The translations under genes were made by a program, and so were the position numbers. Of a stretch of 64,000 bases of DNA, positions 7,866-16,064 are shown one piece after another. Source of the DNA: Candidatus Poribacteria bacterium (GTDB taxonomy: Bacteria; Poribacteria; WGA-4E; PCPOR2b); the NCBI GenBank assembly GCA_965116925.1, contig OZ220744.1, forward strand, positions 5,792,001 to 5,856,000. Reading direction: 5' to 3'. Every line of letters begins with the position of its first letter. Position 1 is the first letter of the stretch. The notes under the pieces are model-generated. The model ran no database searches and was not told the DNA's origin. It saw nothing but the letters and a program-made list of their open reading frames with translations.

Positions 7866-10800
7866 TCAAAACTGAACCCCCGCAAAGAACCCGGGCCAAA
7901 TACGAACAGTCGTATCATCCCCTTGATATACGCGATCAAATCCGTATCCAAAATCCGAAGTGTCCTGTCTATCCGAGACGATGAAGTTGAGCGAAACACC
8001 ACCAAAGAGACTGAACCATTTGTGTTGCTCCCAGCCAAACCCAAGGCGCAGTTTGTTCAGGACGGTGTGTTCGTCATACCACCAAGTGTCCTCCTCCGAT
8101 TCGTCGGTATAACCTACCTGGCGCGTAATAAAGTCAACGTTCAGAAAAAATCGCCTGCTGAGCGGGATATGCCCACCGACACCAAACCCAGACGACCATC
8201 TGCCCAAATCGCCGTGCGGATAACTGCCCACCATCAACAAACTGTAAACGTGTCGGCTACCGATGCGAATCCCAAGGTTTGCGACCTCCGTATCGCTACC
8301 CCACAATTGCAGGTGCAGCGGGTTATCCTTAACAAAGCTGATTAATCCGAGGGGAATGCCGGACATCCGTCCGGAGACGTTGAGCAGCCCAACCTGTGCC
8401 GTACTTACATGCCCAGCGATGTTGAGAAGCCCAATTTGTGTCCCAATCCCACCGAGCGCAATATTGGCTACACCAATCTGTGTACCGGCGTACGGCATAT
8501 TTGCCTTTTGGTCCCAACCTAGCGCGATATTAGCCGCTGCGCTGAGTTGTGTTCCCTCCAAATTCCCAGCAATGTTCACTCCGGCTGCGGCTTGTAGGCT
8601 CCGACCTAGCACATTTCCACCAACGAGATTTAGCCCGGGGGTAATCTGTAACCCCTGAAGGTTACGGGCTGCAAAATTACCCCCGCCAGCGGCTTGAAAG
8701 CCCCGGACACTTCCACCCGCAGCGTTGATTCCTGCTGCCGCTTGGAAACCGTTCAGGTCGCCGCCGCTGGCGTTAAGACCTCCCGAAATTTGGAAACCCT
8801 CCACATTTCTGCCGACAGCGTTGAGTCCACCTGCAATCTGAAAACCATCTAACTCTCCACCGACGATATTGCCGACCCCGGCAAACTGTGCCCCCCGTGC
8901 TTCAACACCTTTAATATTCAACATCCCACCCAATTCGAGCCCATCAAGGTTCGTATGATAACCCGCAATGATATTGAGGGAAAGGTTTGTTGTGATATTG
9001 CGATTAGGATCTTGAAATCCGACGGTGCTTATCCACGGGATCAGTGAAATTGTCAGAGGCAGATGCAAATCGCCCCCTTTCGGGATTGGTGGTGTAACAC
9101 CATCATTCCTTTTTAAGGGAGATAACAGTTCCAAGTTGTCGGAGAGTTGATGTCGGAGAGTATTGGTAATTTGAGAAAGCAGCCCTTCGTTGTTGATTAC
9201 CTCCGGGTCAATCCCTTGATTGTTCAACAGTGAAATATATTTCCCGTTATAAAAGACGCGAGGTGTAATCTGCTGCGGGTAGCGCGTATCTTCGGACAGG
9301 TGGGAATACCAATCTTCGATACCGCGTGTCACATAATCCAATAGTCCCAACACCGTGACGGTCCCATCGGGGCCCGCTGCGCCCCGGTCCCGATCACTGC
9401 CGCGCAACCCTTTGAGCAGGAAGTAGGTGAACAGTCCATGTTTCAGGCGTGGCACTTCTGGTGCCCACTGATTACTATCACACGCGGTGAAGATGATGTT
9501 ACTCTCTTCACTATAACGTGATAACGCTACAACAAACTGCTCCTTCGGTGCCACCCGGCACGCATCAACGATAACGAAGCGGTGTTTTGCGTTTGCGCGG
9601 TTGAGAATCGCAAACAGATTTTCGAGACTCAGTCCACTGTCTGAGAGTGGATCGGTGACATCCATCGGTAGAAAGTAGCCTGTTCCATCGACATCCTCGC
9701 CATGCCCGGAGAGATAAACGGTCAGCAGGTCTACCGCTTCAAGTTGGGCGTGTCGCTGGAGCTGTTCAATCACATTCGCCTTCGTCGGCTGAATCAGACT
9801 ATCGGGTGTCATCAGCGTCACATTGACACCTGCATCTTGGAACACCTGTGCGACCGCTTTGGCATCATCGGCGGCATACTTGAGCGATTGGAAGGGGGAC
9901 GGATAGGTATCCACACCGATAACAACCGCCCAACGTCGCATGTTGACACCGCTTGCGGCACCCAGCTGGAAAGTGCCACCACCGGCAAGCGCCAACGCCC
10001 GTCGGCTCACCGCTATCGACTGTCCCTTTATTGTTGTAAGGGTTAAGGTTTCGTTTTGTTGCGGTATCAAGTCGGTAGAGAGAAACACCTCATCGAAGCG
10101 ATTCTCTGGACCCTCAAGGACAGGCTGCCACGCCAGATTCCACTGTTTGTGATCATTCTGAAGGTGTTGTACAAGTTGTCGGTATGTCAATTTATCACGC
10201 CATTGCGCTTCAATCGTCTGGTTCGCAGGATTTTGCAAATCCCGATTCATCGGGCTGCTCGGAACGGCATGGGAAAACACCCGACGATAGAGGGAATAGG
10301 TCATCGCGCTGACGGGCAGATAGGTCTCACCAATCGGGATGCGGAGTTCGTGAACAACTTGATTATAGGCAGCAGCTGCTAGCAGCAGCGCAAAGTCGGC
10401 AGATTCGTCCAAGATGTCCTCCGTATGGCTCACAATCTGCGTAGGTTGAACGACTCCCGTTGGTGTATCCGTCACCGGCGTGCCTTTGGGTCGCCCCAAA
10501 CGAATCTCCCGGAGTATATCGCCGGAGTAGCATGTGTCGATAATGCAGACAACCTGCTGCGTCGGAAGTTCTTGGAGTAGGGTGTTGAGTTCATCATCTA
10601 GGAGGTACGTCCTCGGCGATGCCAAATCCGCATCCACAGGCAGCAGGGCTTCGTCGTTCCTGTCTGGGTATCGCCCCTTCGCCTCATCACCCGGAAAAGT
10701 TCCGAGCTTGTCAATAATCTGCGTCCCGTGTCCGCTAAAATAGAAGAGTAGACTATCAGAAGGGGTCAGGCGTCGGTTGAGCTCCCGAAATTTACGCTGA

Positions 10801-11171
10801 ATCTCCGCCTTATTCGGATTAGGCAGGATGTGCATCTGCGCCTGTGTAACTCCGTGCGCGGAGAGGACTGCCTCCATCAGTTTCAAGTCATTTGGCGGAG
10901 CATCAAGCTGCAAATTAGGATTTTCATAGTCCCAGACCCCCACAAGGATAGCGTGTTGTTCAGCGTAGACAAACTGTGAAAATATCACAAAGAGACTACA
11001 GATCGGAAGCACCCAGCCAACAATAACACTTACCACAGAGACGCAGAGATTTGCAGAGATTTTTTTATTTTTTCTCTCTGTGTTTTCTATGTCTCTGCGG
11101 TGAGAAATTTCCCGTTTTCCTGTTTTCTGGTTTTCCGCTCCGTCTCTACGATAATATAGATCCGTGACCAT
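7866..11171 (-). CDS. Exported protein: two caspase-like (Peptidase C14) domains, Gly-rich beta-helix-like repeats (LA_2272-like) and a C-terminal outer-membrane barrel; start uncertain (11198/11171 or later)
   Basis: Two His/Cys dyads: YFSGHG + IDTCYSG and YLSGHG + VDACR; signal peptide ending VYA; repeats G(F/L)Q(I/A)AGGxN; C-terminal FFAGVQF. Confidence 0.85.
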   Translation of the reverse strand: MVTDLYYRRDGAENQKTGKREISHRRDIENTERKNKKISANLCVSVVSVIVGWVLPICSLFVIFSQFVYAEQHAILVGVWDYENPNLQLDAPPNDLKLMEAVLSAHGVTQAQMHILPNPNKAEIQRKFRELNRRLTPSDSLLFYFSGHGTQIIDKLGTFPGDEAKGRYPDRNDEALLPVDADLASPRTYLLDDELNTLLQELPTQQVVCIIDTCYSGDILREIRLGRPKGTPVTDTPTGVVQPTQIVSHTEDILDESADFALLLAAAAYNQVVHELRIPIGETYLPVSAMTYSLYRRVFSHAVPSSPMNRDLQNPANQTIEAQWRDKLTYRQLVQHLQNDHKQWNLAWQPVLEGPENRFDEVFLSTDLIPQQNETLTLTTIKGQSIAVSRRALALAGGGTFQLGAASGVNMRRWAVVIGVDTYPSPFQSLKYAADDAKAVAQVFQDAGVNVTLMTPDSLIQPTKANVIEQLQRHAQLEAVDLLTVYLSGHGEDVDGTGYFLPMDVTDPLSDSGLSLENLFAILNRANAKHRFVIVDACRVAPKEQFVVALSRYSEESNIIFTACDSNQWAPEVPRLKHGLFTYFLLKGLRGSDRDRGAAGPDGTVTVLGLLDYVTRGIEDWYSHLSEDTRYPQQITPRVFYNGKYISLLNNQGIDPEVINNEGLLSQITNTLRHQLSDNLELLSPLKRNDGVTPPIPKGGDLHLPLTISLIPWISTVGFQDPNRNITTNLSLNIIAGYHTNLDGLELGGMLNIKGVEARGAQFAGVGNIVGGELDGFQIAGGLNAVGRNVEGFQISGGLNASGGDLNGFQAAAGINAAGGSVRGFQAAGGGNFAARNLQGLQITPGLNLVGGNVLGRSLQAAAGVNIAGNLEGTQLSAAANIALGWDQKANMPYAGTQIGVANIALGGIGTQIGLLNIAGHVSTAQVGLLNVSGRMSGIPLGLISFVKDNPLHLQLWGSDTEVANLGIRIGSRHVYSLLMVGSYPHGDLGRWSSGFGVGGHIPLSRRFFLNVDFITRQVGYTDESEEDTWWYDEHTVLNKLRLGFGWEQHKWFSLFGGVSLNFIVSDRQDTSDFGYGFDRVYQGDDTTVRIWPGFFAGVQF
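11032..11101. repeat. 'accgcagag'-family inverted repeat lying in frame in the 5' end of the caspase gene
   Basis: accacagagacgcagag...tatgtctctgcggt. Confidence 0.75.
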
Positions 11172-11184
11172 CGTTGACCTTGGA

Positions 11185-15153: not shown

Positions 15154-15504
15154 TTATCTGAATCTGACTGCCACGGTTGTCGTCCACCCGCTCGAGATGT
15201 CAGCTTCATATATGAAATCTTGATGATGTTTAGATACAATCCTAACGTCATAGATGCCAGGTTCAATAGTAAAAGTTACTATAGCACCAGGTAGTAGAAC
15301 ATCGGATTTGAGTTGATCTGCCCCCCAAGAATCGTCTTTGGCAGCAGCGATAAAAATACTCGTGATTGTTACATTTGAATGGTTCTTGACTGTCAAAAAA
15401 CCCTCTTCCTCTTCTTCTGTTACATTTACCTCTACATGACACCCACCAAGAACGATCGAGAATGTGATACAAGAGATGACAAGAAGTAGTGCTTGATGCT
15501 TCAT
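15154..15504 (-). CDS. Small lipoprotein with an Ig-like/beta-rich domain
   Basis: Lipobox LGGC after hydrophobic signal; RBS gaggaaagg. Confidence 0.8.
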   Translation of the reverse strand: MKHQALLLVISCITFSIVLGGCHVEVNVTEEEEEGFLTVKNHSNVTITSIFIAAAKDDSWGADQLKSDVLLPGAIVTFTIEPGIYDVRIVSKHHQDFIYEADISSGWTTTVAVRFR

Positions 15505-15524
15505 AGTTTCCTTTCCTCTTAGTA

Positions 15525-16064
15525 TTAACTCTCGGCAAAATAGGATGCCAAGCGTGTCGCGAGTTGTTCTCTCGCGTGATATAGACGGCTTTTAACCGTT
15601 CCTTTCCTAATGCCGAGCTTCCCTGCGATTTCCTTCACCGAAAGTTCCTCAATGTAAAATAACCAAATCACCTGTTGGTGAATCAAGGGCAGTTCCGAGA
15701 TTGCGTCCCGAACAATTGCCATTCTCTCTTGAAACAGGAGATCCGTCTCTGGCGCAGGTGAATCTGATGGTATCCTCTCAGTCCCAAAATCTTCATCGTC
15801 CAGACTGCCAAGTGTGCGTCTAGCAGCCGTTCCTTCACGACGGGACCAGTTCCGAACCACATTTTTCGCAATCTGATGGAGCCACCCCAGAAACGCTGTC
15901 TCGGATTCGTCCGCTATCTGCTCGCGATTTTGATGCGCGATCAGGGCGACTTCGTTGCTGATATCTCGACGGTCTTCGGGTTGGCTGTGTTTATAGTAGA
16001 CACGACAGAGCTCATCAACGAATTGCATAATCTGAGGGTGATACTCTCCAATATCCCTTGCCAC
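15525..16064 (-). CDS. ECF sigma-70 factor
   Basis: Region 2 F.GWL.QIAKN; region 4 LS.KEIA..LG...GTVKSRL..AR; RBS aggagg. Confidence 0.92.
   Translation of the reverse strand: MARDIGEYHPQIMQFVDELCRVYYKHSQPEDRRDISNEVALIAHQNREQIADESETAFLGWLHQIAKNVVRNWSRREGTAARRTLGSLDDEDFGTERIPSDSPAPETDLLFQERMAIVRDAISELPLIHQQVIWLFYIEELSVKEIAGKLGIRKGTVKSRLYHAREQLATRLASYFAES

Follow-up and report, generated by a model that had tools for sequence, protein, structure and literature searches.

Introduction

Cell-surface signaling (CSS) of the classical kind, as in the FecI/FecR/FecA and Fox systems, couples a protein of the outer membrane, an anti-sigma of the inner membrane and a sigma factor of the extracytoplasmic function (ECF) type through regulated proteolysis, with TonB-dependent receptors (TBDRs) as outputs (PMC11637429). 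In Myxococcus xanthus, DdvS/DdvA combines an ECF sigma factor with a one-pass CHCC-type zinc-binding anti-sigma (ZAS), for which a periplasmic caspase-like His-Cys protease has been proposed to cut the juxtamembrane linker before RseP acts; this caspase-like site-1 role was put forward as a hypothesis (PMC11506125). A caspase-like protease also cuts a sigma-binding protein in its linker in Craspase, the Csx29/Csx30/RpoE system of type III-E CRISPR (bioRxiv 10.1101/2022.08.17.504292), and operons joining a sigma-70 gene to a metacaspase gene were reported from M. xanthus DK1622, Anaeromyxobacter, Haliangium, Sorangium, Ralstonia and Fibrobacter (Asplund-Samuelsson 2012, PMC3501461). Here we analyze an operon in a 64,000-nucleotide stretch (G000:C1:5792001-5856000, hereafter the window) of a Poribacteria genome of the sponge-symbiont type (G000), which encodes an ECF sigma factor, a ZAS anti-sigma and a secreted double-caspase protein with a predicted outer-membrane barrel, and we propose that this protein is probably the site-1 protease of its neighboring anti-sigma.

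The operon shares with those of the 2012 survey a sigma gene and a PF00656 protease gene in one conserved unit. The surveyed operons are probably the widespread single-caspase lineage described below, and in its section 'Metacaspases in Operons' that paper mentions neither an anti-sigma nor a barrel, and neither a cut motif nor a mechanism (PMC3501461). From this lineage the Poribacteria form differs in its ECF clade, in a Zn-binding-type anti-sigma whose periplasmic domain is not DUF4384, and in an added N-terminal caspase. DdvA has a TPR-CHAT domain fused to the anti-sigma, a CBASS/CRISPR regulon and a hypothetical cleavage (PMC11506125), whereas the Poribacteria system has a separate C14 protein with a predicted outer-membrane barrel, and TBDRs as its likely outputs. 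Where classical CSS has a TonB-dependent transducer, the putative one here is a beta-helix stalk joined to a predicted 8-stranded barrel; a protease takes the place of the STN domain, and ZAS that of FecR. Csx29 is a TPR-CHAT protein triggered by RNA via Cas7-11 (bioRxiv 10.1101/2022.08.17.504292) and described as cytoplasmic (PMC11506125), unlike the Poribacteria protease with its signal peptide, and no cas genes were recognized in the loci; some Csx30 C-terminal domains are DUF4384 (bioRxiv 10.1101/2022.08.17.504292), which is weakly seen in the anti-sigmas of the widespread lineage. The Poribacteria system resembles signaling controlled by regulated intramembrane proteolysis and the DdvA model, yet it falls outside classical CSS, DdvA and Craspase.

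A literature search, with most subscription papers outside its scope, returned no paper on a triad of ECF sigma factor, anti-sigma and barrel-caspase. The accessible part of the supplement to the ECF reclassification gave 0 term matches for caspase or C14 (PMC7826278), and the neighborhoods of EACC2-caspases with ECFs in PMC8195603 are different from this triad. An automated reading of the window (the original prediction) had not recognized the arrangement as described. As far as our search reached, this holds for the triad, but sigma-70/metacaspase operons (PMC3501461) and the site-1 hypothesis for DdvA (PMC11506125) had already been published.

Results

A conserved core of sigma factor, anti-sigma and caspase

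All five co-oriented minus-strand genes of the original prediction were found where it had placed them (Table 1). The anti-sigma is present in 31 of the 176 Poribacteria genomes, and the caspase gene directly follows it in every locus (32/32), so that the linkage of the caspase gene with the anti-sigma and ECF genes, on which the original prediction had made its proposal depend, was recovered by gene-neighborhood comparison. The linkage of anti-sigma and caspase is far beyond chance, although the Poribacteria loci are kin and not independent, and therefore the locus counts show conservation and are not statistics. The full-length caspase and the anti-sigma co-occur in the same 24 of 60 relatives, counted without one weak match (E 6e-4) and without a barrel fragment with which a contig begins; a first, word-based homolog search had listed close relatives only. 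With these queries neither the anti-sigma nor a full caspase was found in G013, whose sigma copy is internally deleted. The two genes, which the original prediction saw as abutting or overlapping, share 14 nt at the end of the anti-sigma gene and the beginning of the caspase gene, an overlap retained in nearly all orthologs compared. The conserved core is thus an ECF sigma factor, a ZAS anti-sigma and a caspase. L048, a second copy of the triad in G057, has its caspase gene split by the insertion of two open reading frames. In L232 (1392-5549), which has an ECF and a ZAS anti-sigma, caspase 1 is encoded on its own and is accompanied by another, unrelated caspase that is also secreted; this is possibly an unfused form.

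The anti-sigma proved to be of the Zn type with an Hx3Cx2C motif and one transmembrane segment (TM), as claimed from the window alone: C3, H25, C29 and C32 are invariant in 28/28 orthologs, and a hydrophobic segment spans residues ~87-105. Judged by its sequence, it conforms to the class I ZAS pattern (C/H-x(n)-H-x3-C-x2-C plus one TM), and zf-HC2 scores above the cut-off in a homolog. The domain scan returned zf-HC2 only, with no FecR domain and no CHAT domain in the 223-aa protein; the protease is a separate PF00656 gene. The anti-sigma shows no similarity to one of the DUF4384 type, and its periplasmic domain is unrelated to FecR and DUF4384.

A Lys-Gly motif shared by the caspase loop and the anti-sigma linker

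In the linker that follows the TM, G116, K119 and G120 are invariant in 28/28 orthologs, and G-x-x-K-[GSA] occurs in 31/32 Poribacteria anti-sigma linkers, distant loci included. The loop behind the catalytic Cys of caspase 1 reads L-G-x-x-K-G in all 31 Poribacteria caspases. A similar pair exists in the widespread family, where KG follows the TM in 65/66 anti-sigmas (24-28% in shuffles) and R-x-K-G in 51/66 (2.4% in shuffles); these 66 sequences, left after 5 truncated rows were dropped, have a median pairwise identity of 36%, and in them the search itself selected for K and G but not for the P3 and P4 positions. Behind the catalytic Cys, R-x-K-G is found in 58/59 of the single caspases, and before the stalk R-G in 57/59. 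The motif is thus G-x-x-K in Poribacteria and T-R-x-K-G elsewhere, with caspase loop and anti-sigma linker changing in step, and of the further ZAS-TM anti-sigmas in G000, 8 in all, none has KG at that place. Basic residues are where meta- and orthocaspases cleave, on the C-terminal side (PMC3501461, PMC8283722). A motif that switches in step in an enzyme loop and in the juxtamembrane linker of the neighboring gene product suggests, at the level of sequence, an enzyme-substrate relation, and we regard it as the best argument for one.

Predicted architecture of the double-caspase barrel protein

The two intact His/Cys dyads noticed in the original prediction (H157/C223 and H499/C547) are invariant in 25/25 aligned orthologs. 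The signal peptide it reported is present too, with ~27 aa in most orthologs and 79 aa in the window copy; comparison of the ortholog N-termini traces the lengthening to an in-frame insertion of ~150 nt. This insertion (window 11000-11170) is an in-frame palindromic repeat, and orthologs bear other in-frame repeats at the same spot. PF00656 scores 126 bits in the protein, CHAT 12.9 bits (below the cut-off of 24) and the EACC1-associated caspase model NF047832 122 bits (below the curated cut-off of 140). With a His/Cys dyad, a caspase fold and acidic S1-type residues, the protein belongs to Peptidase C14 (meta/orthocaspase). The conserved acidic positions, which we take to be those of the S1 pocket, are kept in caspase 1 (D104, D221) and, as far as sequence can tell, fit a specificity for basic residues. 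Caspase 2 is without the KG loop, unlike the homologous single caspase of the widespread family.

The beta-helix-like repeats and barrel-like C-terminus of the original prediction are backed by fold searches and by a model of residues 697-1110 (124 sequences), which shows a beta-helix followed by an 8-stranded barrel with a predicted local distance difference test (pLDDT) value of 93.6. In the VIA search the barrel resembles OprF and NspA (Z about 14) and the stalk matches a beta-helix (Z 21), with beta-helical adhesins among the fold matches; Foldseek gave no match for the barrel at E<=0.001, whereas the VIA search did. Long loops follow strands 5 and 7 of the modeled barrel, tight turns follow strands 2, 4 and 6, and the N-terminus lies at the tight-turn side. 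In outer-membrane proteins, tight turns and the N-terminus usually mark the periplasmic side. The model therefore makes it likely that the barrel sits in the outer membrane and that stalk and caspases face the periplasm and, because two dyads, a beta-helix and a predicted 8-stranded barrel are joined in one chain, that the protein is a periplasm-facing protease. The stalk measures 200-328 aa across 19/25 orthologs. The LA_2272 repeat model NF047436 reaches 16.3 in the window protein, against a cut-off of 25 that the homologs P0137, P0142 and P0226 exceed. A complex prediction of caspase residues 80-689 with the periplasmic part of the anti-sigma scored 0.00 and was used neither way.

Caspase 2, stalk and barrel align collinearly with the single-caspase proteins of the widespread family (probability 100). 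What is added relative to them is caspase 1, which in L232 stands alone as a secreted gene after sigma and anti-sigma genes. Because of this collinearity and this separate occurrence, the Poribacteria protein looks like a fusion of two modules, a sequence-based view with which the separate ECF clades of the two lineages agree.

Predicted promoter and variable genes of the operon

The motif TGAACC-N14-RACAC precedes the sigma gene in 26/27 loci examined and is also present at 3/4 distant loci, while a reversed control pattern gave 0 matches in 41 genomes. Elsewhere in G000 there is a single strong copy, which stands before a truncated start of a sigma gene and a TBDR paralog (G000:C1:698631-701070; L234, L249). 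Since the motif and a broken sigma start also stand before a TBDR paralog in G005, G007 and G010, making four genomes with G000, this paralog is likely a regulon member. An extra match, in G032, falls within a reading frame and probably arose by chance. In G000 the motif was not found before CBASS/CRISPR genes, only before this operon and the one TBDR, though degenerate sites may escape the pattern. Scans for generic sigma-70 promoters and for terminators gave no signal above shuffles, and Rfam had 0 matches across window 7000-17000. In a quick tree the operon ECF forms its own clade, separate from that of the widespread single-caspase lineage; as the tree leaves the relation of the two clades unsettled, we do not claim a common origin of their sigma factors. 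G000 has 41 ECF-like open reading frames, including a cluster of long fused ECF paralogs near 5.63-5.67 Mb. In four metatranscriptome runs, relatives were represented by nothing more than short contigs of low depth, in which flanking genes were covered equally, with no silent-stretch control.

A TBDR gene lies between the sigma and anti-sigma genes in 24 of the 26 close loci (17 of one type, 7 a 37-38% paralog, 2 with none), and the sigma gene is directly beside the anti-sigma gene in seven loci (L047, L048, L074, L229-L232). The domain scan found no STN domain in the TBDR (P0003), and the same scan finds STN in barrel homologs. Because it is without STN, comes in two exchangeable paralog types and is absent from this position in the seven loci, we do not follow the original prediction in treating the TonB receptor as a signaling part. 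The lipoprotein gene, without a Pfam match, is present in 11/26 close loci and confined to the genus of the window among 61 genomes. TBDR and lipoprotein are likely exchangeable cargo, outputs and not sensors.

The inserted element of Table 1 has three more long copies in G000 at 75-87% identity, is structured (z -4.06) and has ends that are presumably IS200/IS605-like. Because it separates the ribosome-binding site of the TBDR gene from its start codon, translation of the TBDR may be impaired in this strain. In RNA libraries, contigs matching part of the element are very deep, possibly from other copies. A short palindromic repeat occupies the intergenic stretch at window 11857-11950, and its 21-mer core is present 55 times in G000. 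Downstream of the operon (window 6142-7841) lie a convergent AlbA_2/RecG-C gene and a nucleoside 2-deoxyribosyltransferase-like gene, which vary among relatives.

Table 1. Features of the operon, with positions counted in the window
Feature	Position	Strand	Evidence
Predicted ECF-dependent autoregulatory promoter	16086..16110	-	TGAACC-N14-[AG]ACAC motif
ECF sigma factor, 179 aa (core)	15525..16064	-	Sigma70_r2/r4_2, TIGR02937
Small lipoprotein, 116 aa (variable cargo)	15154..15504	-	Lipobox Cys22 read from sequence
Inserted ~423-bp multi-copy element, outside the system	14553..14975	n/a	3 further long copies in G000
TBDR without STN, likely regulated cargo	12051..14552	-	CarboxypepD_reg, plug and barrel
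CHCC-type ZAS anti-sigma, 223 aa, one TM (~87-105)	11185..11856	-	Invariant residues, hydrophobic segment
Periplasmic-linker motif W115-G-P-Q-K119-G120 of the anti-sigma, candidate site-1 cut site	11497..11514	-	Invariant G116/K119/G120
Double-caspase gene	7866..11198	-	Two PF00656 domains
Caspase signal peptide, A-x-A-type site before E80	10962..11198	-	Orthologous N-termini compared
Caspase domain 1, residues 80-375, H157/C223	10074..10961	-	PF00656, metacaspase matches, acidic S1-type D104 and D221
Caspase 1 post-Cys loop motif L234-G-R-P-K238-G239, candidate autoprocessing site	10482..10499	-	L-G-x-x-K-G in 31/31
Caspase domain 2, residues 420-665, H499/C547	9204..9941	-	Homology to single caspase of widespread family
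K707-G708 in variable linker before stalk, possible release site (weaker)	9075..9080	-	KG in 14/25 orthologs
Beta-helix stalk, 16-aa repeats, LA_2272-like	8328..9071	-	Model, fold search
Predicted 8-stranded outer-membrane beta-barrel, terminal Phe	7866..8324	-	OprF/NspA fold matches

The barrel module outside Poribacteria

Among the best 150 matches to the barrel, 74 representatives have at least 600 aa, and hidden Markov models place an N-terminal caspase in 54 of them; Pfam, applied to 59 of the 74, assigned PF00656 to 51, STN to 7 and CarboxypepD only to 1. Single-caspase loci from metagenomes were taken as the best 80 of 561 loci confirmed in 18 of 64 collection parts. Among the 50 that extend 1.5 kb or more upstream of the caspase gene, 46 have an ECF there (54/80 overall), and a one-TM anti-sigma-like gene is found in 70/80. 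These loci have a promoter-like motif of their own, GTGACA...GGTGT, and DUF4384 in the anti-sigmas of the lineage is below the Pfam cut-off throughout, with 6/12 at E<=0.05. In the phylum of a Spirochaetia record, 13 of 121 genomes match the single-caspase family, and the triad is present in all 5 loci inspected out of 6. In other operons (L082, L085, L117, L119, L122) several secreted caspases occur with DUF4384-like and OmpA/TPR-like genes (labels given by eye), in most cases beside an ECF gene and an anti-sigma gene; several proteins of L117 share a recurrent K-D-[LI]-x-V motif, possibly a further cut code.

In Bacteroidota (L235-L238) an STN-type barrel protein lies directly behind FecR; L235 includes an ECF, and the remaining three loci have ECF-like fragments. 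The third gene of these loci (3814-10777 in L235) combines STN, a beta-helix and a small barrel, and replaces the TonB transducer. The search recovered the type in at least 5 of 81 genomes, missing a known positive (G064) at its threshold, and two further matches stand alone without a sigma gene (L239, L240). G000 itself has a stand-alone secreted stalk and barrel paralog (G000:C1:1737711-1738994), without a caspase or a neighboring sigma gene.

Discussion

Our analysis shows a real and conserved system, probably a three-gene proteolytic switch with variable cargo. We think it reasonably probable, from the sequences compared, that the caspase protein is an activating site-1 protease dedicated to the operon anti-sigma, with the barrel protein as transducer; this proposal has gained support because the linkage is conserved and a candidate cut motif co-varies between the two proteins. 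In such a scheme the anti-sigma, as expected of a ZAS family member, would keep the sigma factor at the inner membrane until a cue at the outer loops of the barrel, or envelope damage, activates the protease. To judge by the motifs, caspase 1 would likely process itself at K238-G239, and possibly at K707-G708, releasing itself from the stalk, and would then cut G-x-x-K|G after Lys119 of the anti-sigma, ~14 residues beyond the membrane, shedding the periplasmic domain. An RseP-type protease, for which peptidase M50 genes are present, might complete the cleavage, and from TGAACC-N14-RACAC sites the freed sigma factor would drive transcription of its own operon and of STN-less TonB receptors. By analogy, the exchange of STN, the classical anti-sigma-contacting domain, for a caspase on the same barrel module would support the role of transducer.

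Several observations weigh against this proposal. The P1' residue is Ser or Ala instead of Gly in 3 distant anti-sigmas, and that of L232 misses the spacing; in DUF4384-type anti-sigmas the KG sits at the start of the domain and could have a structural role. The full-length AlphaFold model has a pLDDT of 54.7 and was used solely for caspase-fold matches, and the loci, as kin, are not independent witnesses. A tethered protease may be out of reach of the inner membrane unless it is released, and the release-site KG before the stalk is found in only 14 of 25 Poribacteria orthologs. Finally, linkage and shared motifs also fit a regulated effector or the opposite sign of control. If the caspase were a regulated output, acting in envelope remodeling, in the maturation of envelope proteins or as a death or defense effector, generic proteases would remove the anti-sigma and the KG would serve the caspase itself only. 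Its position at the end of an operon for which one promoter is predicted would suit such a role, as would the stalk-barrel proteins that occur without a sigma gene (G000 1737711; L239, L240), but this leaves unexplained why the anti-sigma linker keeps the motif of the caspase loop and switches with it between lineages, why the motif is absent from all 8 other anti-sigmas of G000 and why the caspase is fixed while true cargo varies; we consider it unlikely. Control of the opposite sign, with the barrel protein protecting the anti-sigma by binding or pre-clipping it, or else cutting it in feedback, such that the sigma factor comes on when the barrel protein is lost, has a precedent in classical CSS, where the signaling domain of the transducer stabilizes the anti-sigma, as FoxA does for FoxR (PMC11637429). 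Here the caspase takes the position of STN in the same module, and two caspase domains, the second without the KG loop, leave room for a regulatory one; against this, both dyads are invariant and the motif lies near the membrane, where a cut sheds the periplasmic domain in full, just as canonical site-1 cleavage does (PMC11506125), which makes the idea rather improbable.

The overall plan of signal peptide, beta-helix and C-terminal barrel, with beta-helical adhesins among the fold matches, also recalls passenger-barrel proteins, and an autotransporter-like surface protease could act on proteins of the host sponge, of predators or of phages. The translocator barrel of type Va autotransporters is 12-stranded, whereas the barrel here is predicted to have 8 strands with its N-terminus at the tight-turn side, and homologs carry the periplasmic STN at the position of the caspase, so that we give this possibility very little weight. 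Hardly any credence is left for classical signaling through a TonB transducer, in which the TBDR would be the sensor and the caspase an accessory: the TBDR does lie between sigma and anti-sigma genes in most close loci (24/26), but it is without STN, the anti-sigma is without FecR, the receptor is exchangeable and missing from that position in seven loci, and in four genomes copies of the promoter have moved before TBDR paralogs.

Returning to the caspase as site-1 protease, candidates can be named in this system for the enzyme, its substrate, the cut site, the promoter and the protease acting downstream, and it is therefore testable by point mutations and a reporter. More tentatively, and with doubt slightly outweighing confidence, we suggest that the beta-helix/8-stranded-barrel proteins may form an unrecognized class of TonB-independent cell-surface transducers with a swappable periplasmic output, which would be either STN for the FecR-type anti-sigmas of Bacteroidota or a caspase reading a lineage-specific Lys-Gly code common to its own activation loop and the cognate anti-sigma. 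Poribacteria would have fused an older soluble caspase/ZAS/ECF module onto one such protein, giving a two-caspase cascade in a single chain. To our knowledge, little is settled about the roles of bacterial caspase homologs outside CRISPR and defense, and for most ECF anti-sigmas no site-1 protease is known. If our proposal is true, bacterial caspases would have a job in envelope signaling, cell-surface signaling would extend beyond TonB-dependent transducers, and a widespread family of small barrels would gain a function.

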